Below, one piece after another: positions 4,558 to 17,902 of a stretch of 20,046 nt of DNA. The position numbers and the translations under genes were made by a program. Position 1 is the first letter of the stretch; every line of letters begins with the position of its first letter. The DNA is from an uncultured archaeon. Lineage in GTDB: Archaea > Asgardarchaeota > Heimdallarchaeia > Heimdallarchaeales > Kariarchaeaceae. The notes under the pieces were generated by a model, which searched no databases, had not been told where the DNA came from, and saw nothing but the letters and a program-made list of their open reading frames with translations. Location of the stretch: assembly GCA_964645535.1 (NCBI GenBank), contig CAZYCQ010000057.1, forward strand, positions 1 to 20,046. The letters run 5' to 3'.

Positions 4558-4568
4558 TTATATTGTTT

Positions 4569-7500
4569 ATGTCATCAAAGTTGGTAAAATGGAAAAATGC
4601 GCAATTACTGGTGCTGATTCTTGTTTTATTGATAAATTTGCAAGCCAAGGGGGGATCAAAATTAGTAAGAAATGATAACTTTGAACTGGGAACAGCAGAA
4701 ACAATTTCCATGGAGAGAACGCCATTAGTTTCTGATGGAACACCGCGAACGGATCGGGAAAGGGGAATACACCAATTTCAGGGAACTCAAAATCAAGATC
4801 CATTGATTCTCCATAACGAATATGTGAATGGACTGATTTCTTCCATATGGGGAAATAATTTCAATGATCTTTCATCATATACAGAAGTCTCAGGTCAGAC
4901 AGTATTCAATGATCTGACCAGTTTCGCAACAACATATGCAAGTTCCGGGGATGGATCCGCAGGAAACCCATACATTTTCCAAGGACTGTTCATCAACGCT
5001 TCAGTAGCTGAAATGTATTTTGACTCAATCAGCGACAATTTCGTATTGCGAGATTCCGTTGTTTTGGGAAAAATGACCTTGGATGCAGCCAATGCCATGC
5101 GCATTGAGAATACAGTATTTTTTTCATCATCCTATGCCCTTCGTTTGCTTGGAATGGAGAACTTGGTAATTGCCGGAAACACTTTTGTTGCCAATGGCAC
5201 GACTTATGCCCTATCCATTTCTGGAAGCAGAAACTTGGAGATCAGAGACAATACTGTCATAGTCGGGGAATCTGGAGGAGGGATTATATTTACTTCGGGC
5301 ACTTTTAGCATCACGAATGTGAATATAACCCAAAATCAATTTCAGACTCAGAAAACTGCAATATTTGGAACATCCGGATTGGGAGGCAGTAACAGGATTA
5401 TTGGAAATTATTTCAATTCTTCAAGTACGTCAACATTTATCACTTTGATTCCCAAAGGAGATCTTGAATTTAAAGACAATACAGCAATAGTTCATTATAC
5501 ACCCCATCAGTGGGATGGTGCCATTTTTTTCAGTGGCATAGGGGGGTCTTCTGGAGATGTGTGGACCATCAGAAACAATACAGTGTCTGGTCTGGAGGAT
5601 GGATTGTCATTTTACAGTCCTGGAATACTTGAGCTGAAAAACAATACAATCAGGGAGAGTCTGCATGGTGTGAAGTTCTATCAGGTGGACGATCAGCGTA
5701 CAATTGATGCAAATGTCATTGAGAATAGCCAAATCGGTTTTTATGTAAGAGTTTCAACAAATACGACGATCAATGGAACCATTATGAGAGGTGTCGATTT
5801 TGGTGCCATTTTTGAATTGGCTACTTCGAATGTGCTGAATAATACTCGGATTGAAGATTTCAATTGGGTTTTGCATGATCTGACAGACAACAATCCGCCC
5901 AACCAAGCAATTAACACAGAGGAATTGGGGGCAAGATCCAATGGATTGGACGCCCAGAATGACAGTGAATTTGATGATTGGGCAACTACCAATGGAATTC
6001 AGGGATCTGGTACTCCAGAAGACCCTTTTGTATTGGAGGGATTGGTGATTACAGGAGGATTGGGGTTAGGAATTGTCACCAATTACACATTGAAGCTGAA
6101 AGATGTAATGATAGAATCAGTCTACAATGATTTGATTAAACCTTTGAACATAGTTTCAGGATCTGGGGTAATTCTAGAGAATGTGACAATTACGGAGGCA
6201 ACCAACGGGATCTATTTGGAGACAACGGGATTCCTTAGAATGCAAAACATAACCATTTCCAAGCTAATGGACAGTTCAACCATCAAGTTTGCGAAATCGG
6301 TATACATTGAAGGGATGAAGTATACGGAATCTGAAAATGGACTTGTGTTGTCGTTTCTGTCAGATGTCATTATGACTTCATTTGAGTTTAGAGACAATGG
6401 AAACAAGCACCTATTCATTGAAGGGGCAAATAACCTTACTTTATCGGATGGTGAAATCACAGGAGGTGGTGATGCCTTATTCATTATTGGATCAGATACG
6501 GTAACCGTTGAACGAACCCTCATCAATTCAACAAATACGCCAATGTTTGTTTCGGAATCTTCCAATGTCGTATTTCGGGAGAATTACGTTACTTTAACCG
6601 AGAACCGAGGAACATTTGAATATATTGATAACGTAAATATTACGGGAAACATCTTTATCGACAATAAAGACAGTGTGTTCTATGCAGAATTTACATATCT
6701 GAACACCCCCTTCTCGGCTTGGAAAAATTATTTCATCAACAACAGCTGGGTTACCGGAAATGATCACTTTATCCTCTCTGATGACATTATCCTTACAGTA
6801 GGGGGAATAGGGAACTATTGGAGCGATCTTCCGGATGGAGCGACCACCTATACCATTCAGGGATATGTTGACACTGCACCAATAAGACCCAAAGTAGACC
6901 CTCTTGAGGAAACCCATGAATATGCCAGTTCTATTGCAATAGATGTCTCAACTACATTTCCAGTTCCTCTTGCATCTTGGTCGGTATATCAAAATGGTTC
7001 CGTCATTCAGAATGGAGCATGGAATGGAAATGCATTCCAATTCTCCTTTAATCCTACTGGCTTAGGGATCTTTACCTTTGAAATAGGAGTAAGGGACAAA
7101 TATGGAGTGAATGGTGAGAATACCACCCTGAAAATAACAGTAATTGACAGTATCGCGCCTGTGATCATACCTGTTGACGATATTGTGTTTCAGGAAGGAG
7201 AGGCGGGTCAGGCAATCATATGGAGGGTAAGTGATCTGTTTCCGGACACCTATGAAATCTATCAGAACAATAGTTTAGTGCAATCGGGCACGTGGAATTC
7301 ACCAACCAACATAACCGTTGATTTAACAGGGCTTGAGGTGGGGAGTTACAACTTTTCCATCCTAGTATATGACACAAGCGGCAATGTTGCCAGAGATGAG
7401 GTAATTGTCCAAGTTCAATCATTCTCGTCGACCGATACTTCAGAGAGTTCTTCAGAAGAGAGCACCTCTTCATCAGGGACGATATCAACTACACCATCAT

Positions 7501-7643
7501 TCCCGGATGGAGCAGGAGAAAATGGAGGAAACGAAAGAAGGAGCATAAGCACTGGACTATTTCTCCTGATTCTACTGATGCTTGTTGCCAATTCCATCGC
7601 CCTTTACCATGGTGTGAAATCATATTTTGAAGGGAAATATTAA
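4569..7643 (+). CDS. Cell-surface protein with NosD-like right-handed beta-helix repeats, Ig-like domains, Ser/Thr-rich linker and C-terminal TM anchor
   Basis: N-terminal signal-like segment. Two cap motifs (GDGSAGNPYI, GSGTPEDPFV), many I-x-x-N-x-I/F repeats and GNYWSD. Two Ig-like repeats (WSVYQNGSVIQNGAW, YEIYQNNSLVQSGTW), then SSTDTSESSSEESTSSSGT linker and TM GLFLLILLMLVANSIALY. ATG 4569 is preferred over TTG 4563. Confidence 0.9.
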   Translation: MSSKLVKWKNAQLLVLILVLLINLQAKGGSKLVRNDNFELGTAETISMERTPLVSDGTPRTDRERGIHQFQGTQNQDPLILHNEYVNGLISSIWGNNFNDLSSYTEVSGQTVFNDLTSFATTYASSGDGSAGNPYIFQGLFINASVAEMYFDSISDNFVLRDSVVLGKMTLDAANAMRIENTVFFSSSYALRLLGMENLVIAGNTFVANGTTYALSISGSRNLEIRDNTVIVGESGGGIIFTSGTFSITNVNITQNQFQTQKTAIFGTSGLGGSNRIIGNYFNSSSTSTFITLIPKGDLEFKDNTAIVHYTPHQWDGAIFFSGIGGSSGDVWTIRNNTVSGLEDGLSFYSPGILELKNNTIRESLHGVKFYQVDDQRTIDANVIENSQIGFYVRVSTNTTINGTIMRGVDFGAIFELATSNVLNNTRIEDFNWVLHDLTDNNPPNQAINTEELGARSNGLDAQNDSEFDDWATTNGIQGSGTPEDPFVLEGLVITGGLGLGIVTNYTLKLKDVMIESVYNDLIKPLNIVSGSGVILENVTITEATNGIYLETTGFLRMQNITISKLMDSSTIKFAKSVYIEGMKYTESENGLVLSFLSDVIMTSFEFRDNGNKHLFIEGANNLTLSDGEITGGGDALFIIGSDTVTVERTLINSTNTPMFVSESSNVVFRENYVTLTENRGTFEYIDNVNITGNIFIDNKDSVFYAEFTYLNTPFSAWKNYFINNSWVTGNDHFILSDDIILTVGGIGNYWSDLPDGATTYTIQGYVDTAPIRPKVDPLEETHEYASSIAIDVSTTFPVPLASWSVYQNGSVIQNGAWNGNAFQFSFNPTGLGIFTFEIGVRDKYGVNGENTTLKITVIDSIAPVIIPVDDIVFQEGEAGQAIIWRVSDLFPDTYEIYQNNSLVQSGTWNSPTNITVDLTGLEVGSYNFSILVYDTSGNVARDEVIVQVQSFSSTDTSESSSEESTSSSGTISTTPSFPDGAGENGGNERRSISTGLFLLILLMLVANSIALYHGVKSYFEGKY

Positions 7644-9010: not shown

Positions 9011-10408
9011 ATGACGAAAGATAGAAGATTGGGTTATGCCCAAAAGCATTCAGTGAGAAAAAGAGGAGAGAACCCATTTGTTGGCGAACTTGATCCGGAA
9101 GAGCTTTGGGGAATGCTCGAGAAAATGAGCTGGCATAAATTCGAGCACCAAGATCTATCTTTTGTGCATAGAAACATGGTTCGTTCTTTCCTCTCATCAC
9201 ATGAATTGAAGATTGACTTTCGGAAGTACATGGAACTTTTGTTCGAGTATTTTCCGGAGGAGATGGAACAAAACCAAGGGCGTTTTGATTTGGATGGTTT
9301 CAAAAGATCTTTGATCATGGAAGGATTCTTTGACGACAAGCTCCCTTCTGTTTATCCAGCACAATTTGTCAAAATCGAGGGTGAGTTGGTTCTCCGGCAT
9401 CGGGGCACTTCAAGAGAAGATGAGATGAAGTACTATTTCAGGTTACCGCATTTTTCGTCTCAACTGGATATTCAGGAATCGGTAGGCTTAGTGCATTTCA
9501 TCCAAGTATGCAATAGTTACATGCTTTTGGTCATTTCTGAAGATCCAAAAAAGATAACTCCCAGTGAATTTGTCTTGGCAAGTATCCTGACAGTGTTTGT
9601 TCTTAGAAGACATTGGGGGTTATTCTATTTGGCAAAGGATAGGGATGACGACCTAGATGCCTTGTTCATGGTGTTATTGACACCACTCTATCGACTTGCG
9701 GAATACTATCCTGAGAACTGGGTATTGCATCTTTGTCTGTTTTTCCGCCTTGCGGTTGATGCCATTGTTTTTGGGAAAGTGAATATTGACGAAGCGAGAG
9801 CATTTGTTTCATTGGTGAGGAGTTGGAAGGAACTGGATTTGGGAGAAACTGTAACTGATGCAGCTTTAAAACTTCTGGAAATTGAAGGACATCTACCTGC
9901 ACCAACTGTCCAGATTTCTCGAAGAGCTTTTGGCATTGACAATTTCAATCAGATCGTTGTTGCTGAGGAGCAATTGCCGATTCCGTATCTGTTTTTGGAT
10001 GGAGTTTATCTTGGATCGGCAGGGGGACATCATTACTACTACTGTGCAGAAACATTTGGACTACGCCATTTCTGGTCAATAATTGAGCGGATTAGCCTTT
10101 CAGATGTACAGATTTTGACAAAGGACAAGAAGACCTATGTCCAAAAACTAGGTTGGTTGCATATTCACACGATTGATTATCTCAGGGCCAATTTGAATGA
10201 CTATAGGATGCCCTTCCCGGATCCACTGCGTACTGTTGCAGTATCACTTCCGAATGGATTACAATTGGAGGAAGAAATTGCTTATGACTTTCTTTTCGAG
10301 ATCGGAACAACAAAATTCTATCTGATAGGGTTGAATACAATCTATGATTTGCTCGAGCTTTACGGAAATATCCGAAAAACACCAGGTGCAGAATTAATTT
10401 TTTACTGA
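9011..10408 (+). CDS. Hypothetical soluble protein (465 aa)
   Basis: Long ORF with ATG start, divergent from the peroxiredoxin gene. Protein-like composition but no motif recognised. Confidence 0.82.
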   Translation: MTKDRRLGYAQKHSVRKRGENPFVGELDPEELWGMLEKMSWHKFEHQDLSFVHRNMVRSFLSSHELKIDFRKYMELLFEYFPEEMEQNQGRFDLDGFKRSLIMEGFFDDKLPSVYPAQFVKIEGELVLRHRGTSREDEMKYYFRLPHFSSQLDIQESVGLVHFIQVCNSYMLLVISEDPKKITPSEFVLASILTVFVLRRHWGLFYLAKDRDDDLDALFMVLLTPLYRLAEYYPENWVLHLCLFFRLAVDAIVFGKVNIDEARAFVSLVRSWKELDLGETVTDAALKLLEIEGHLPAPTVQISRRAFGIDNFNQIVVAEEQLPIPYLFLDGVYLGSAGGHHYYYCAETFGLRHFWSIIERISLSDVQILTKDKKTYVQKLGWLHIHTIDYLRANLNDYRMPFPDPLRTVAVSLPNGLQLEEEIAYDFLFEIGTTKFYLIGLNTIYDLLELYGNIRKTPGAELIFY

Positions 10409-10477
10409 TACGGATATTGCAAGATGAAGATTCAGATTGCAATTTCCCGAAAAAAAACAGGAGTGGCAGTTTGGCTA

Positions 10478-10489
10478 GAAAGTTTAAAT
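10478..10489 (+). promoter_or_regulatory. BRE/TATA-like element (GAAAG-TTTAAAT) for the Rab-like gene
   Basis: TTTAAA at 10483-10488 lies ~26 nt upstream of in-frame GTG 10514, the same spacing seen at other genes in the window. Confidence 0.5.
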
Positions 10490-10513
10490 CTTTCAAATCC
10501 AATTATTGGGATT

Positions 10514-10987
10514 GTGGGAAAGCAACTCAAGATTTCTTATTTTGGAACCAAAACGAAAATCAACCAAAGGGCTTCTCGAGCAATTTCAGGAGAATTTTTG
10601 AGAGATGAGTTGGGAGACATCGGAGCGGATTTTCGCCAGCAAGAAATTGAGAGTGACGGCGAAAAATTGAAGGTTCAGGTCTGGGATGTTGTGGTTTCAA
10701 AGATGACAAAGTCCATCAGAAAGAGATTTTATCTTGGCACAAAAGCTGTAATTCTTCAAATGGATGGCAGGGAAATGCTTGATTCTTTGGATGAAATTAT
10801 CAGGGAAATCCGTCAAACATCCCCAAGGATGAAAATTGCAGCAGTGATTGACCGAAGTGATGATTGGGCAAGAGAAAATGAGGAAAGAATCAAACGATTG
10901 CTTTATGGCAAGGGAATTTTTGACATCCTTATCACGGATGGTGATACTGAAGAGTTCCAAAAGTTTCTCAAAAGCCTATCGAAGTAA
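10514..10987 (+). CDS. Rab-like small GTPase homologue with degenerate nucleotide-binding motifs (candidate pseudoGTPase)
   Basis: IGADF, DGEKLKVQVWD and SIRKRFYLGTKAVIL align with RabF1-F4, while G1-G5 are non-canonical. Start is probably GTG 10514 (157 aa); the ORF is open from ATG 10424. Confidence 0.82.
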   Translation: MGKQLKISYFGTKTKINQRASRAISGEFLRDELGDIGADFRQQEIESDGEKLKVQVWDVVVSKMTKSIRKRFYLGTKAVILQMDGREMLDSLDEIIREIRQTSPRMKIAAVIDRSDDWARENEERIKRLLYGKGIFDILITDGDTEEFQKFLKSLSK

Positions 10988-12013
10988 TGATTTTTTCTTT
11001 TTTCTAAGAAAAGCGATAAGGACAATAGGGAGAAACAGCAATGGTGAGGAAAGAGAAAATCGTTGAGGAGAGGTTGGTTTGAGCAATTCCAAGTTCTGTA
11101 CAATTGCGGTCTCACCTTCTTGGATAATATGGATCTTAGTCTCTCGCAAGAAATAATCCCCTGATATAATATCCATAATTATCCTGCCTGATTGGATAAA
11201 GGTTTCTTTCATGAGGCCTGTTTCCTTGTCAAAAAGTATTCCAAAGGTCGAATTGGGAGGATAGGTGCCTGCAAAGAGGGGAATTGAAGGATCAATGATT
11301 TCACTAAGGTTAAATTCAGGGATGAAAGTGTGGGAATACAGAAAACCATAAGTAAAGTTTTCTCGTGCAATGATGGCAGAATAAGAATAATTCACAAGTA
11401 GTTGATTATATTTTTCAGGAATGAGATCATCAAGATTTGGATCCAAAATTTTTAGCAAACGTGAAAGACTTAGTCTAACGGAAGTTCCATTGGTATTGAA
11501 TATATAGGTCGAAGGATCCATTTTTTCTGCAATATCGATATCCAGCTGATTGGATTGCCTATATTGATCCGCAATAACTGCTCCAAGAAGACAATCATTT
11601 TTCATTGCATCAATAGGATAGACAAAGTAATAGTAATAGCTTGAGGGAAGATCCGGACAGACATTTCCATCAAGTCCCTGAACTTTTGCAATGGCAGTAC
11701 CGTCTATGGTAGGATAAGTCATATTTGCTTCGAAATTTATGTTCAATTCAGAATCATAGAGTACAGGCATATCAAACTTGGTTTGTGATTTGATTTCAGT
11801 AGACCCGATTTCGATCACAGATAATTCCGCAGTTCCTTTTGTTGTTTCATTTTGGATGGGGAATTGAGGTTCACCATCTATCAGTGGAATTGTGGTCGCA
11901 ATTTTTTCGACTTCATAGGAGATATGGTCTCCTTGCTGTATCCCGAAATCATAGGCAGAACCGTTTGGAATAAGAAGAAGGAAAAATAATGGAATAGTTA
12001 ACCAAAAACGCAT
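10976..12013 (-). CDS. Secreted/surface protein with signal peptide and C-terminal TM plus basic-tail anchor
   Basis: Signal peptide MRFWLTIPLFFLLLIPNGSA, mature start YDFGIQQGDHISYEV, many N-x-S/T sequons, and C-terminus PLLFLPIVLIAFLRKKKK. Confidence 0.85.
   Translation of the reverse strand: MRFWLTIPLFFLLLIPNGSAYDFGIQQGDHISYEVEKIATTIPLIDGEPQFPIQNETTKGTAELSVIEIGSTEIKSQTKFDMPVLYDSELNINFEANMTYPTIDGTAIAKVQGLDGNVCPDLPSSYYYYFVYPIDAMKNDCLLGAVIADQYRQSNQLDIDIAEKMDPSTYIFNTNGTSVRLSLSRLLKILDPNLDDLIPEKYNQLLVNYSYSAIIARENFTYGFLYSHTFIPEFNLSEIIDPSIPLFAGTYPPNSTFGILFDKETGLMKETFIQSGRIIMDIISGDYFLRETKIHIIQEGETAIVQNLELLKPTSPQRFSLSSPLLFLPIVLIAFLRKKKKSLLR
10990..11003 (+). terminator. Oligo-T tract, candidate archaeal intrinsic terminator for the Rab-like gene
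   Basis: TTTTTTCTTTTTT begins just after TAA 10987. It is the reverse complement of the poly-Lys codons of the convergent gene. Confidence 0.35.
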
Positions 12014-12063: not shown

Positions 12064-13425
12064 TTAGGATTTCTTTAATTGAGCAACAGATTGTAAAATG
12101 GCAATGGAGGCAAAGACACCTTTCTTGAAATATTCGACATCGAGATTTTCATTCGGAGCATGATTGTTTTCATCTGGAAGTGCAAATGGAATCAAAAAAG
12201 TCGGAGCCTTGAGGATGTGTGGAAAGAGATAAATCGGCAAGGAACCCCCCAATCGTGGAACAATGAGTGGATCAACGGCAAACCCCTTTTTTAGACCGGT
12301 AGCCACCACATCCATATAGGGTGAATCAAGAGAGGATTGGACAGGCTCCATGGGGGATTCATATTCAACAAATACATTATCCAATATTCCACGTTTCTGA
12401 GCCCAGAGGCGGATATGGTTATCGATTATGTTCTTGAGACGTTCTGAGTTCATATTTGGAACCATTCTGCAATCAATTGAAGCCTTTGCTTCACCGGGAA
12501 TAATAGTTCTTCTCTGAGTATCCACACCTCCCGCAGAAAGACCATTTATGTTGAATGTTGGAAAGAATTGGTTGAGAAACTTAGCATCTTTCCCTTGGAT
12601 TGATGGGGCAGGAGTTAGTGGGGCAGATTGGAGAATGTTTTCATAAATTGGATTCAGCTGTTGAAGATATTCCAGTTCCTTTGCGGAAGGAGGAAGGACA
12701 TCATCATAGAAACCGTTGATCTTGCACATCCCGTTTCCATCGACCATTGACCTTAGAAGGTCGATCAAGTCAGCAGTTGCAGAACGGGATATTCCACCAT
12801 AATTACCAGAATGAAGGTCTTTGCCATGTCGGATTGTGATTTGAAAGCCAAAAATCCCCCTAACGGATCCAACTATTGTAGGTCTGTCAGGAACTAGTGA
12901 CGGGCCATCAGAAATCAAAATAAAGTCAGATTGCAATTTTTTTCTGTATTTTTGCAGAACAGGAGGAAGGGAAAATGAACCTCGTTCCTCATCCCCATCC
13001 AGGAGTATCTTAACCTTGATTTTCCTGAAAGTTTCCTGATCGTATTCGTTTAGATATCTAAGAGCCAAGAGGTGGGCAAAATGTTGACCTTTATTGTCTG
13101 CACTTCCTCTTCCCCAAATTTTTCCTTTTTTGTAGACTGGTTCAAAGGGGTCGGTTTCCCATTGATGAAGATTACCGGGTGGTTGGACATCATAATGTCC
13201 ATAGATCAAGACAGAAGCACCTGTACCATGGTTTTCGCCGATAATCACAGGATTTCCAGATGTTTCGACCAATTCAGACTGAATCCCAGATTTCTTCATG
13301 AGATTTTGGGCAAATTCTGCGGTAAGTCTAACCTTTTCACCTTGAGAGCTGATACTAGGCAACCTAATATAATCAAAAAGTTCACTCATCCAGTCAAGTT
13401 GTTCCAACCATTCAGAAGGATGCAT
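12064..13425 (-). CDS. M20 family metallo-dipeptidase/amidohydrolase (ArgE/DapE-like, dipeptidase-like subgroup)
   Basis: YGHYDVQP, GRGSADNKG, DGDEERGS, SDGP, DLHSGNYGG, GGSLP, HAPNEN. Confidence 0.95.
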   Translation of the reverse strand: MHPSEWLEQLDWMSELFDYIRLPSISSQGEKVRLTAEFAQNLMKKSGIQSELVETSGNPVIIGENHGTGASVLIYGHYDVQPPGNLHQWETDPFEPVYKKGKIWGRGSADNKGQHFAHLLALRYLNEYDQETFRKIKVKILLDGDEERGSFSLPPVLQKYRKKLQSDFILISDGPSLVPDRPTIVGSVRGIFGFQITIRHGKDLHSGNYGGISRSATADLIDLLRSMVDGNGMCKINGFYDDVLPPSAKELEYLQQLNPIYENILQSAPLTPAPSIQGKDAKFLNQFFPTFNINGLSAGGVDTQRRTIIPGEAKASIDCRMVPNMNSERLKNIIDNHIRLWAQKRGILDNVFVEYESPMEPVQSSLDSPYMDVVATGLKKGFAVDPLIVPRLGGSLPIYLFPHILKAPTFLIPFALPDENNHAPNENLDVEYFKKGVFASIAILQSVAQLKKS

Positions 13426-13469: not shown

Positions 13470-14537
13470 CTATTTCTTCCCATTGTTTGATAGGAATATC
13501 CGAAGTTTGGAGTGAATGTCAGCTGCAAAGGTATCCTGATGTTCACCGCTAATACTTCCATTTGATCCAATGATTGGGATATCCCATTTGGCAATGAGGT
13601 TCTTGAAAATCCCATCAAGCAATGGATGAGAGCCTGTAGAGATGGCAAATATTGAATTTTCCTTTCCGGGATACACGCCAATGGTATAATCTGCGTATCC
13701 AAGTTTTGGTGGAAGTTCATCTCTTCCAGATATTTCTTTGATTACAGCAAATATTCCTTGGAGACCTGCGGATGTCAATGAATGTTGAATTTCTTGTTCA
13801 ATGGGGTAGGAGACCGCTGCGAGACCAGAAGATCGTTGAGCGAGAATTACTTTTTCCAGAACAATATCGGGGACAATTAGCGAGGTGGGATCATAGGTGA
13901 GTGCCAACACTAAGGCCAAAGCCCCCATTGCAGAAGGGAACTGATAAAATGATGTCGGGAATGGAAGCTCCTCTCTGAAAACCAAGAGAAAAAAGCTGAT
14001 AAGATAAGAAGTGGGGTATAATATGGCGACTTTGGCCCATTTTGAGGGGTTTTTTCTTGCTCCGTTGATGAAAAGCCTCAGGTATTCCACTAAAATCCAT
14101 GCTACAGGACCATACATCAGAAGTCGAATTGCATTGTTTCGTTTGATGATCCAATTAGTTCCATCCCAATTGACTTCGGTTCCGATTATTATCCAACCCA
14201 TGCTAAATCCGGCAAGAAGAAGCAATACCAAAAATCTTTGAGGAACATTTGCCGCCTGATGAACCTGGAGATTCCAAACTGTCAGAACCATTCCTATGAG
14301 AAGAGTGATTGCCCCGAGAATTGCAGCGAAAGTGATGATTTCAGTGTATTGATTACCTTCTAGAAATGCCTGGGGAATGAATGAGACAGGAAGACCAGCT
14401 TGCAGGACAATTCCCAATGAAACAAGTTTAAGGTGTCTAGTATTCAAAGAATTAGTTTTCAGATACAGCAATAGTCCTCCGAGGATAATCATGATTGAAG
14501 AAAGGCCGGAATATATCAAGGTAGGAACATTTGTCAT
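13470..14537 (-). CDS. Seven-transmembrane protein fused to a C-terminal longin/roadblock-like domain
   Basis: Seven hydrophobic segments in aa ~6-215. The C-terminal ~130 aa has VIL..R.SGL..VSY, L.SAGLQGI...IKEISG, three beta strands and two helices, a longin-like pattern. Confidence 0.8.
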   Translation of the reverse strand: MTNVPTLIYSGLSSIMIILGGLLLYLKTNSLNTRHLKLVSLGIVLQAGLPVSFIPQAFLEGNQYTEIITFAAILGAITLLIGMVLTVWNLQVHQAANVPQRFLVLLLLAGFSMGWIIIGTEVNWDGTNWIIKRNNAIRLLMYGPVAWILVEYLRLFINGARKNPSKWAKVAILYPTSYLISFFLLVFREELPFPTSFYQFPSAMGALALVLALTYDPTSLIVPDIVLEKVILAQRSSGLAAVSYPIEQEIQHSLTSAGLQGIFAVIKEISGRDELPPKLGYADYTIGVYPGKENSIFAISTGSHPLLDGIFKNLIAKWDIPIIGSNGSISGEHQDTFAADIHSKLRIFLSNNGKK

Positions 14538-14632
14538 ATAGTTTAGTTACTATTAAACAGAATTTAAACTTAGGGGGAATTTCATTTGGAATTCTTCACT
14601 AAGTTTTAATGAATAGAAGAGGGTCGTGAACT

Positions 14633-15209: not shown

Positions 15210-17009
15210 TCAGTAAGTCTCGATGAATGGCAGTTTTTCACTAAATTTGATCAGGAAGGCACCCACAAGCAATGCACCAGTTGAAAAGATCGCAATTTGT
15301 CTTACTGCTTCAGCTATGTCTTGATTCAAGATTACCTTGACAGGATTGTACAGGCCGATTAAACCTGCTTCAAGAGGGTCAATCGAGGTTTGGGTCATAA
15401 ACGGGATGACAAACCACATGAGAATTGCGATGCCCAAAAGGCGGCTCCAGATTACACCTTTGGATTGGGAAAGATATATCGGGACAGCAAGCAGGAGGGT
15501 CAATAGAAGATAAAGAGGAACAAATCCGTAAATTGCGGCCAAATGATAAGCAGTTTCGGAAGAATAGCCAAAAGTTTGGTCAGACAGAAAGGTGTACAGT
15601 GCCATCTGGACATACAGGATATGGAGTTCGATTATTATTGCAAATATTCTTTGAGTGACAATGATTGATGGATGGACGGGAAGCGAACCAACAAGGTCAC
15701 CGATCTTTCTGTCCTTGTCATAGCTGACTATTTTTTTGCCCCAATAGAGAGCAAGTGGAAACATGAAAAACCAATGAATTCCAATTGCCTGAGTGACGAT
15801 CCACCAAACATAGGGGGCATTAGAAAGATCATAACCATACGTAATAAGGTTGACAAAACCACCTGAAAAGCCAATGATGAATGCTTGAGCTTCCTCATCA
15901 CCGGGATAGGCAAAGAATTGCAATGGATAGAACATCACAAGAACCCAAAACATGATCGTCAGGGTTCTTGCTTCAGAAAAGAGGAAATCTGCAGTATATG
16001 GAAGCCGTTTCTTCAGTGCCTTTGCCCAAAATACGAAAATGCCGGACGTTGCACTTTTGGATTTCTTTTCACCATTTACCTTTTTTTCTAGCTTCGAAAC
16101 TCTTGAATCAAGAGATTGGAAGTAGGTTCTGGGATTGAGAAAATTCAAGAAGGAGGTTAATGGGGAAAGAGCCTTGAAAATGATTGAGATTGGTTTTTTC
16201 AGATTGACCATTGCAATGTCTTTTTCAAATTCCTTTTTGGAATAAAGCCAGACGTCAAGCAGGACAAAAATTATTGAAGTTATGACAATGTATTGTACCT
16301 CTTTGGTAGGGAGCTTATTCTCGAAAAGAACTGAATTGAGATCATACCAATTGAGGAAGTTCATATCGTTGAGATCTTGGAGGGAGTCATTGACACGGAA
16401 CAGGATCTGAACTGAATAGAAGACAAGAATTAGCAACAACGAGAACTGTTGCATTCGACCCAAGTTTCCACCAAGTATTCCCAAAAAGATACCCAAGAGG
16501 TAACCCATTGTAAAAAAGAGTTGGTTAAAAATAAATAGGTTCATAAGAATTGAGAATTCAACATGATTTCCTTCAATCGGGAAAAACCAAGGAAGTATCA
16601 GGGCAAGATTGAAAATTGCAGAAATGATTTGGCCATTGAGAAATGAGATAGAGAGATTTAAAGTTCTTCTGACCGGCAATGGAAAGAAAGTTTCATGGGT
16701 TCCCAAATCCATATCGAGAAGTATAGTCCTGTTTCCATAAAGAGAAGCTGCAATAAATGCAACAAGACCCATAGTAGGCAGTGCAAAGCTCATCCATATC
16801 AGAACAGGGGCAGCTTCGGAATCAATCCCTCCCAATATTGCTTGGAATATCTCTTGATCCAGTAAGCCTAAAAAAGCCTGAATACCTTCTTCTCCAGGAT
16901 AAAGTGCATACATCATAAGATTGAATACCATAAAGGCAAGAATCCAGCCAAGAAGGAAAAATCGGTTCAATATCAAATCCTTAAGGATTAATTTAGTGAT
17001 TTTTCCCAT
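15210..17009 (-). CDS. ABC-2 type exporter permease with two fused halves
   Basis: Two homologous ~6-TM halves (YPGEEGIQAF vs YPGDEEAQAF; LPVRR vs LPVHP). Starts 2 nt after the ABC ATPase stop, with SD GGAGGTG. Confidence 0.88.
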   Translation of the reverse strand: MGKITKLILKDLILNRFFLLGWILAFMVFNLMMYALYPGEEGIQAFLGLLDQEIFQAILGGIDSEAAPVLIWMSFALPTMGLVAFIAASLYGNRTILLDMDLGTHETFFPLPVRRTLNLSISFLNGQIISAIFNLALILPWFFPIEGNHVEFSILMNLFIFNQLFFTMGYLLGIFLGILGGNLGRMQQFSLLLILVFYSVQILFRVNDSLQDLNDMNFLNWYDLNSVLFENKLPTKEVQYIVITSIIFVLLDVWLYSKKEFEKDIAMVNLKKPISIIFKALSPLTSFLNFLNPRTYFQSLDSRVSKLEKKVNGEKKSKSATSGIFVFWAKALKKRLPYTADFLFSEARTLTIMFWVLVMFYPLQFFAYPGDEEAQAFIIGFSGGFVNLITYGYDLSNAPYVWWIVTQAIGIHWFFMFPLALYWGKKIVSYDKDRKIGDLVGSLPVHPSIIVTQRIFAIIIELHILYVQMALYTFLSDQTFGYSSETAYHLAAIYGFVPLYLLLTLLLAVPIYLSQSKGVIWSRLLGIAILMWFVIPFMTQTSIDPLEAGLIGLYNPVKVILNQDIAEAVRQIAIFSTGALLVGAFLIKFSEKLPFIETY

Positions 17010-17011
17010 TT

Positions 17012-17902
17012 CTACACCTCCGATTGATAAATTGGCAAGAAGTAATCTTCGAGGGTTGGAGGAGGGAGTAGAATATCGTCGATCTTATCAAGAGGAATGG
17101 AATTCAGGAAATCCTTTGCTGAAGAATCATAATACACGGTTATGGTCAACCCATCTGAAAAGATTTTTTTGATCTGTGGATTCTGCTCAAGGTTCTGCTT
17201 GACAGACACATCAGAAATTCTAAGAATGGCCTTCCTTGGAACTTGAGAAAGCAATTCATCGACCTTACCTGTTGCAACGATTGAACCCTCCTTGATCACG
17301 GTCACATGAGAACAGACTTCTTGCACTTCCGCGAGGATATGTGAAGAAAGGAAAACAGTACCTCCATTGTTTGTATATTCAATGAGAAGTTTATTGAACT
17401 CTTCCTGCATTAATGGATCAAGTCCAGTTGTCGGCTCATCTGCGATAACTATCTCGGGATCATGCATAAAGGCCTGCACAACACCAACCTTTTGCCTATT
17501 TCCTCGGCTGAGGTCTTTGCACAGCCTTCCCTCATCAAGCTGAAATCTGTTTACAAGTTCTTTTCTTCGAGGAGCTGAACCTCTAATTGATTCAATGAAG
17601 TCAAGATATTCTCCTACAGTATAATGAGAGTATAGCTCGAAATCTGAAGGAAGGTAACCGATCTTTCTCCGCGATTCCAATGATCCCGCGGGCTGATCAA
17701 AGATAGTGGCACTACCACCAGTAGGTTTGAGAAGACCGACGAGGATTCTGATTGTGGTAGTTTTTCCAGCCCCATTGGGTCCCAAAAAGCCGTGAATAGT
17801 GCCTTTTTCAACCGATAAATCGACATTTTCAATTCCGCGAAATTCACCATAATATTTCGTAAGTGAAGTGCATGTAATTGCCGTTCCTTCTTCGGATACC
17901 AT
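17012..17902 (-). CDS. ABC transporter ATP-binding protein (DrrA/CcmA-like exporter)
   Basis: Walker A GPNGAGKTT, signature LSRGN, Walker B IVIADEPT, D-loop GLDP and H-loop SSH. Confidence 0.97.
   Translation of the reverse strand: MVSEEGTAITCTSLTKYYGEFRGIENVDLSVEKGTIHGFLGPNGAGKTTTIRILVGLLKPTGGSATIFDQPAGSLESRRKIGYLPSDFELYSHYTVGEYLDFIESIRGSAPRRKELVNRFQLDEGRLCKDLSRGNRQKVGVVQAFMHDPEIVIADEPTTGLDPLMQEEFNKLLIEYTNNGGTVFLSSHILAEVQEVCSHVTVIKEGSIVATGKVDELLSQVPRKAILRISDVSVKQNLEQNPQIKKIFSDGLTITVYYDSSAKDFLNSIPLDKIDDILLPPPTLEDYFLPIYQSEV
17015..17021 (-). promoter_or_regulatory. Shine-Dalgarno GGAGGTG for the permease gene
   Basis: The minus strand reads TCGGAGGTGTAGAA-ATG. Confidence 0.7.

Follow-up and report, generated by a model that had tools for sequence, protein, structure and literature searches.

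Longin and roadblock domains are established platforms for small GTPases and usually act as homodimers or heterodimers. The longin fold is the one with which eukaryotes dock and switch these GTPases, and Mon1 and Ccz1 together form a guanine-nucleotide exchange factor (GEF) for a Rab protein. Asgard archaea contain dozens of eukaryote-like small GTPases together with longin and roadblock proteins. Here we describe a gene on a 20,046-nucleotide stretch of DNA (the window) from an uncultured archaeon of this group (Asgardarchaeota; Heimdallarchaeia; Kariarchaeaceae; assembly GCA_964645535.1, contig CAZYCQ010000057.1, positions 1–20,046). The gene occupies positions 13470–14537 of the minus strand and encodes a protein of 355 residues (P0001) in which a seven-transmembrane (7TM) domain is predicted to be joined to a cytoplasmic tail with the longin fold.

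According to the available text of Liu et al. (bioRxiv 10.1101/2020.10.19.343400) and Tran et al. (2024; PMC10933270), longin and roadblock domains are abundant in Asgard archaea and are found fused to GTPases. The soluble Asgard proteins of these reports, so far as that text describes them, resemble the present protein in belonging to the same superfamily, in being greatly multiplied and in often forming multidomain proteins peculiar to narrow lineages. They differ from it in being soluble, or fused to GTPase, DENN or two-component domains, and no 7TM fusion appears in the same available text. A preprint of October 2026 (10.64898/2026.10.28.762692) reports Asgard '7TM proteins' and a 'class C GPCR' (G-protein-coupled receptor) structural cluster, with no mention of a longin tail. 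No description of a fusion between a 7TM domain and a longin domain was found in the searchable literature, a search that did not extend to supplementary tables accompanying the large surveys of Asgard archaea, in which such a group may be listed. Both folds are known, and the novelty lies in the domain architecture that joins them.

Hydropathy analysis by the method of Kyte and Doolittle identifies seven hydrophobic segments in residues 1–222 (13872–14537, minus strand), at approximately 4–26, 36–58, 64–90, 100–120, 137–157, 168–188 and 202–222. The same seven are present as helices in the AlphaFold2 model (residues 4–31, 34–58, 62–95, 101–119, 135–162, 166–190 and 197–215), as an earlier note on this DNA, made from the sequence alone, had proposed. 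The model used was obtained with a 26-sequence alignment of the family (A1) and has a pLDDT of 88.6 and a pTM of 0.83; a model calculated from the single sequence was poor (pLDDT 44.6) and was set aside. The Trp-rich peptide TEVNWDGTNWIIKR between the fourth and fifth transmembrane helices (TM4 and TM5), which the note had taken for a probable β-hairpin, is modelled as one (strands 121–124 and 129–132), and forms the second extracellular loop (residues 120–133; 14139–14180, minus strand), with Trp129 conserved in 21 of 25 relatives. The Asp-Pro pair that it had pointed out at the end of TM7 corresponds to Asp216-Pro217, which closes the helix and is followed by a short turn; Pro217 is conserved in 24 of the 26 members.

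The orientation of the protein was assessed using the positive-inside rule in the 23 members with a complete membrane part. Lysine and arginine residues average 8.5 in the predicted inner loops and 3.2 in the outer loops, and the inner count exceeds the outer in every one of the 23, which places the N-terminus outside and the tail in the cytoplasm. Hydropathy, model and charge distribution thus agree on a GPCR-type topology of seven helices with N-out/C-in orientation. Positions of the membrane part conserved in at least 70% of members are Gly42, Pro50, Gly82, Arg101, Leu105, Trp129, Trp147, Glu151, Arg188, Tyr198, Gly205 and Pro217; Arg101, Trp147, Glu151, Arg188 and Tyr198 among them are polar residues that lie within helices or at helix ends. 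In our view, the arrangement of seven helices followed by a cytoplasmic longin domain, with this topology, is very probably correct, as judged from the model.

The tail, residues 223–351 (13485–13871, minus strand), consists in the model of strands 227–234 and 240–244, helix 249–270, strands 278–281, 284–290 and 294–300, and helices 305–318 and 331–344, with local pLDDT values mostly between 74 and 92. This is the order β-β-α-β-β-β-α-α that the earlier note had read from the sequence of this region of about 130 residues; the elements fall on the peptides that it quoted. They form a five-stranded sheet between helices, and the strand order is that of a longin domain rather than of the permuted roadblock domain. 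Superposition using VIA-align gave the best agreement with chains from complexes that contain Mon1 and Ccz1: 9lol_A (the MON1A-CCZ1-RAB7A complex; Z 11.4, root-mean-square deviation (r.m.s.d.) 3.4 Å over 125 residues) and 8jbe_B (the metazoan Mon1-Ccz1-RMC1 complex; Z 10.9, r.m.s.d. 2.9 Å over 119 residues). A Foldseek search of the PDB returned Mon1-Ccz1 (5ldd_E), the TRAPP longins 2j3t_C and 3cue_A, and 7e93_E; these expected folds head the results, although no match has an E value below 0.001. On the strength of the predicted structure we conclude that the tail is a longin fold. Two of the outcomes that the earlier note had named as refuting its reading, a C-terminal domain of another fold and an extracellular position of that domain, were accordingly not observed. 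It shares the fold and the strand order with the subunits of the Mon1-Ccz1 Rab7 GEF and with Bet5 and Trs23 of the TRAPP core. It differs from them in context, since those are soluble complexes of several longin domains and the archaeal protein carries one longin domain on a 7TM bundle, without detectable sequence similarity to them.

Sequence profiles are silent on the tail. Pfam scans of the whole protein, of each half and of the 26 aligned members gave only noise, with no longin, roadblock or other family. The curated profiles Sybindin (PF04099), Fuz_longin_1 (PF19036) and Robl_LC7 (PF03259) matched neither the protein nor any of the 26 members, and a profile of the tail found nothing below an E value of 0.28 among all PDB sequences. 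Several paralogous tails in the same genome do give sub-threshold matches to Fuz_longin_1, Robl_LC7 and Sybindin (E values 0.006–0.19), which agree with the fold assignment. Residues of the tail conserved in at least 70% of members are Ser237, Gly238, Leu254, Gly261, Ile262, Glu268, Pro276, Gly280, Tyr281 and Ile286. The Pfam scan of the protein also detected no kinase, cyclase, HisKA, HATPase_c or PAS domain, in keeping with the earlier remark that kinase and cyclase domains are lacking.

Superposition of the membrane part (residues 1–218) places it closest to the 7TM domains of class C GPCRs. The best match is the GABA-B receptor (7c7s_A; Z 14.7, r.m.s.d. 3.8 Å over 212 residues), followed by GPR156, mGlu and CaSR with Z values of 12.5–13.7. 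The likeness to these receptors as a group (r.m.s.d. 3.6–4.0 Å over approximately 200–212 residues) includes the N-out/C-in orientation, short loops and the hairpin of extracellular loop 2. The archaeal protein differs from them in having only 8–12% sequence identity, no Venus-flytrap domain and no match to a Pfam 7tm family: 7tm_1, 7tm_2 and 7tm_3 were not matched at E values up to 1 in any of the 26 members, and the best hit of a membrane-domain profile against PDB sequences was ACKR3 at an E value of 0.28. GPCRs outside class C superpose on the membrane part with Z values of 11–12.5, as do microbial rhodopsins and a ceramidase (12.1 for the alkaline ceramidase ACER3). Since the rhodopsins and the other GPCR classes are only 2–3 Z units lower, the seven-helix fold must be regarded as a common one, and kinship to class C GPCRs is not demonstrated. 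Two of these fold families were considered separately. A microbial rhodopsin was ruled out because TM7 (residues 197–215) contains no lysine, as the earlier note had also seen, and none is conserved there across the family. A 7TM hydrolase of the alkaline ceramidase or PAQR type was likewise ruled out, the positions conserved in at least 70% of members including no histidine and forming no His/Asp metal site.

Among predicted models in the ESM Atlas, the bundle matches HisKA_7TM histidine kinases with TM-scores of 0.76–0.78. When related prokaryotic proteins combining a 7TM domain with an output domain are included, LuxR-type regulators among them, the range is 0.72–0.78, and a cluster of animal GPCRs reaches 0.69. 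Because these modules feed kinases and LuxR-type regulators, the shape is one that acts as a signal input elsewhere in prokaryotes. The modules of HisKA_7TM (PF16927) are seven-helix bundles of the same size and shape and likewise precede a cytoplasmic output domain; the output here differs in being a longin domain, without PAS, HisKA or HATPase_c. No family member was matched by the HisKA_7TM Pfam model in hmmscan or hmmsearch. A profile comparison of the family with 12 Asgard HisKA_7TM modules using hhalign was weak (probability 14%, P = 0.0019, 117 collinear columns; 1% for a reversed control), and bona fide HisKA_7TM members were found in 20 of the 201 Asgard genomes searched. The profile-profile comparison is suggestive of kinship at most, and the proposal that the bundle is a sensor of the HisKA_7TM type draws its support from shape, not from sequence.

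The reading frame opens with ATG, and three orthologues share 74–77% identity with it. Across these, the non-synonymous divergence (dN) is approximately 0.18 and the synonymous divergence (dS) is saturated, with both domains behaving alike (dN 0.15 for the membrane domain and 0.24 for the tail). Judged by this substitution pattern, the frame is a real gene with strong purifying selection on both domains. We note that the orthologue P0004 (L003, 7890–8957) is recorded with 318 residues, although the conserved open frame also spans TM1; the shorter length results from the choice of start codon. The start of P0004 has probably been annotated too far downstream, and the true start codon is perhaps an unusual one.

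A HMMER search of 1.84 billion cluster representatives returned 22 relatives of about 350 residues that align through both domains, apart from two: a 295-residue protein without the N-terminus and a 180-residue fragment. In the ESM Atlas, the full-length model is matched by three clusters, of 134, 70 and 79 members, with TM-scores of 0.68–0.78; they are almost wholly archaeal and mostly from Promethearchaeota. A search of 400 genomes of the phylum located the 7TM module in 15, mainly within the family to which the window belongs (six of 11 genomes there). Some genomes have two to six copies, with tandem arrays in relatives; in the window itself the gene is single at its locus, with no tandem pair. 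The earlier expectation that related fusions occur in other Asgard genomes was thus borne out. On these alignments the fusion is fixed, every near-complete member having both domains, and the family appears to be small and confined to Asgard archaea within the data searched. The window's gene belongs to a narrowly distributed subfamily. A search for loci of the close subfamily gave two relatives, on contigs of Candidatus Heimdallarchaeota archaeon. Three further genomes of the genus were searched for the module, and in two of these, one of which is 93% complete, it was not found.

We tentatively interpret the protein, by analogy, as a membrane sensor in a single polypeptide, belonging to an Asgard-specific family, with a longin output that acts on a GTPase; taken as a whole this mechanism is possible rather than probable. 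The bundle would perceive a signal, perhaps a small ligand, perhaps an ionic cue or one from the membrane. The helices to which the tail is attached would then shift, and the conformational change would travel through TM7 to the longin domain, probably acting as a homodimer or heterodimer, and alter its engagement of a partner. The most likely partner would be one of the Rab/Arf/Rag-like small GTPases, or else a longin or roadblock protein to which such a GTPase binds, and the GTPase would be recruited or switched at the membrane, a logic like that of GPCRs with a different output module. Every step after the sensing of the signal is one that we infer. The more specific proposal that these proteins are archaeal receptor-GEFs or receptor-GAPs (GTPase-activating proteins), in which the sensed signal directly switches a Rab/Arf/Rag-like GTPase through the fused longin domain, is in our estimation unlikely.

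Several observations weigh against a sensor coupled to GTPases. No ligand is known for the protein. For a helical bundle the match is in part borderline: across GPCR classes, rhodopsins and the ceramidase, the Z values of the modelled domain drop from 14.7 to no lower than about 12. The tail matches no longin family in the Pfam and PDB profile searches. The longin/roadblock fold also works as a plain dimerization or adaptor module. The window's genome contains 32 genes for small GTPases of the Ras/Arf type, and of the 21 genes with this tail, two have one of them within 5 kb, where random placement would give 1.6 (P = 0.47). The window's gene is the only one of the 11 membrane forms near a small-GTPase gene, and a GTPase gene occurs in none of eight neighbourhoods of more distant family members. 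No open reading frame (ORF) in the genome joins the tail to a GTPase domain. A word-based search for longer fused tails likewise gave only proteins of the present type and no GTPase fusion; being limited by its words, this search is weak evidence. With no genomic link found, the coupling rests on what longin domains do in eukaryotes and on the fact that in Asgard archaea they are abundant and occur fused to GTPases. The direct regulation of small GTPases by a ligand sensor, as the earlier note had inferred it, therefore retains the analogy of fold and nothing beyond it. We note that the genome does retain some gene pairs of GTPase and regulator: one of its five Robl_LC7 genes (C19, 6701–6970) lies directly upstream of an Arf/Ras-type GTPase gene (C19, 7122–7664), a classical pair like MglB and MglA.

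The lack of any GTPase linked by gene position would suit a sensor with a different output, the tail acting on other longin or roadblock proteins, on TPR scaffolds or on two-component proteins, or serving as a small-molecule-binding or autoregulatory plug. The structural neighbours of the tail include domains on response regulators and on bacterial OmpA-family proteins (TM-scores 0.75–0.77), and the available text of Liu et al. reports Asgard proteins in which NPRL2-like longin domains are joined to two-component domains. The closest solved matches to the tail are, however, longin domains that regulate GTPases, and the gene neighbourhood points to no other type of partner either. On balance we consider an output of this kind improbable, though it merits attention.

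The distribution of the tail within the genome bears on whether the bundle senses anything. A hidden Markov model of the tail matches 21 ORFs, of which 11 are polytopic membrane proteins with 6–9 predicted helices. By their membrane parts, which can barely or not at all be aligned from one group to the next, these 11 form at least four groups; with 11 genes here and tandem copies in relatives, the family has multiplied in the manner typical of receptors. The remaining carriers have TPR repeats, a propeller of the FG-GAP/BBS type, an ATP-cone or the tail alone. The genes at C12 (5085–6578), C15 (28868–31042), C50 (19411–21300), C4 (76768–78060) and C33 (3265–4608) are examples: the tail is joined there to a β-propeller resembling FG-GAP and BBS2-BBS7, to TPR arrays or to an ATP-cone, and one of these proteins, of 447 residues, has it at the N-terminus together with a second, partial copy and may be a protein with several longin domains.

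Being joined to so many different modules, the tail looks like the constant working part. The occurrence of the same tail on at least four unrelated-looking polytopic domains, and on soluble TPR, FG-GAP propeller and ATP-cone modules, is what would be expected if the helices were a constitutive anchor that tethers and perhaps dimerizes the longin domain, providing a fixed dock for a GTPase, for a roadblock or longin partner or for a coat-like complex, with no sensing. The available text of Tran et al. (PMC10933270) states that soluble Asgard GTPases and roadblock proteins lack lipid anchors and were not targeted to membranes in HeLa cells, so that they would need a tether. A plain tether, however, requires neither seven helices, nor a conserved outer hairpin with Trp129, nor the polar residues Glu151, Arg188 and Tyr198 within helices. 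The dN of the membrane domain, moreover, is as low as that of the tail, and in shape the bundle resembles known sensor modules. We therefore regard a fixed anchor as rather unlikely, although it deserves serious consideration beside a sensor acting on GTPases.

The GTPase-like gene nearest to the 7TM-longin gene encodes a Rab/Roc-like protein (10424–10987, plus strand; weak Roc and Ras Pfam matches) and is 2.5 kb away. Both genes are part of a single conserved stretch, present in the window and in the related loci L003 and L004, which raises the question of whether they form a fixed pair of receptor and pseudo-GTPase. The synteny, however, is confined to close relatives in which the whole gene order is kept, and the genes are on opposite strands with two others between them. 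The Rab-like protein was found only within the genus at an E value of 1e-10 or better. Outside it the two do not travel together: genomes G047 and G050 have orthologues of the 7TM-longin protein (38–39% identity) without a detectable Rab-like protein, and G054 has a Rab-like protein without a detected orthologue. A dedicated partnership is accordingly highly improbable.

Another feature of the neighbourhood is the recurrence of hydrolases of amide or ester bonds. The next gene on the same strand, which begins 44 nucleotides past the stop codon of the 7TM-longin gene, encodes an M20 peptidase (12064–13425, minus strand). Orthologues of the 7TM-longin gene elsewhere adjoin a penicillin amidase (L038, 1868–4267), alpha/beta hydrolases (L005, 5006–5884; L007, 4954–5817) and a deacylase of the AstE/AspA type (on the contig of P0007), and EamA transporters occur twice beside them. 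These neighbours may hint at the nature of the ligand or may be due to chance. They could also be read as signs that the protein is a transporter, or an enzyme of the membrane, whose tail is regulatory, the bundle moving or processing a substrate of the neighbouring hydrolases. Orthologues at 38–100% identity adjoin the M20 peptidase (in the window and L003), the penicillin amidase, the deacylase or the alpha/beta hydrolases, and ACER3 is among the fold matches. Such a function is nevertheless very unlikely in our view: there is no conserved His/Asp metal site and no histidine among the conserved positions, the enzymes encoded nearby come from different families, and the association weakens in more remote members. 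To our knowledge, seven-helix bundles of this size do not act as carriers.

How Asgard GTPases reach membranes, and which signals control them, is a missing link for which this family provides a concrete and easily expressed candidate, and the soluble tail of 130 residues can be tested directly against the 32 GTPases of the genome. If the proteins were receptor-GEFs or receptor-GAPs, they would be a prokaryotic counterpart of receptor-to-GTPase signalling and would explain how Asgard small GTPases without lipid anchors are tied to membranes. A true GTPase link would bear on a pre-eukaryotic origin of receptor-controlled GTPase switching and of membrane identity. If that link is false, the family would still show that Asgard archaea use the longin domain as an all-purpose module for output or as an adaptor.

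Upstream of the gene, a TATA-like box, TTTAAATT (14561–14568, minus strand), was read from the sequence 24–31 nucleotides 5' of the ATG; it is possible that the gene has its own promoter, with a leader that is short or absent. Between the M20 peptidase and Rab-like genes, 10976–12013 (minus strand) encodes a protein of 345 residues with no Pfam match, which has a signal-like hydrophobic segment at its N-terminus and, at the C-terminal end, a hydrophobic anchor with a Lys-rich tail after it; the synteny of this gene with the 7TM-longin and M20 genes extends to L003 and L004. In L001, where the M20 gene stands in the window, the 2.5 kb downstream of the orthologue (9078–11599) contains no ORF of at least 80 residues, a result that does not distinguish masked from non-coding sequence. 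On the other side, 15210–17902 (minus strand) encodes an ABC ATPase and then a polytopic membrane protein of 599 residues without a Pfam match. In every close relative this pair is a neighbour of the 7TM-longin gene. The YdjM gene that separates them in the window is absent at this place in L001 and L002, where the pair lies immediately upstream on the same strand. Farther away, 4563–7643 (plus strand) encodes a protein of 1026 residues with right-handed β-helix (NosD) repeats and a weak, sub-threshold match to Y_Y_Y, which is probably a surface protein.

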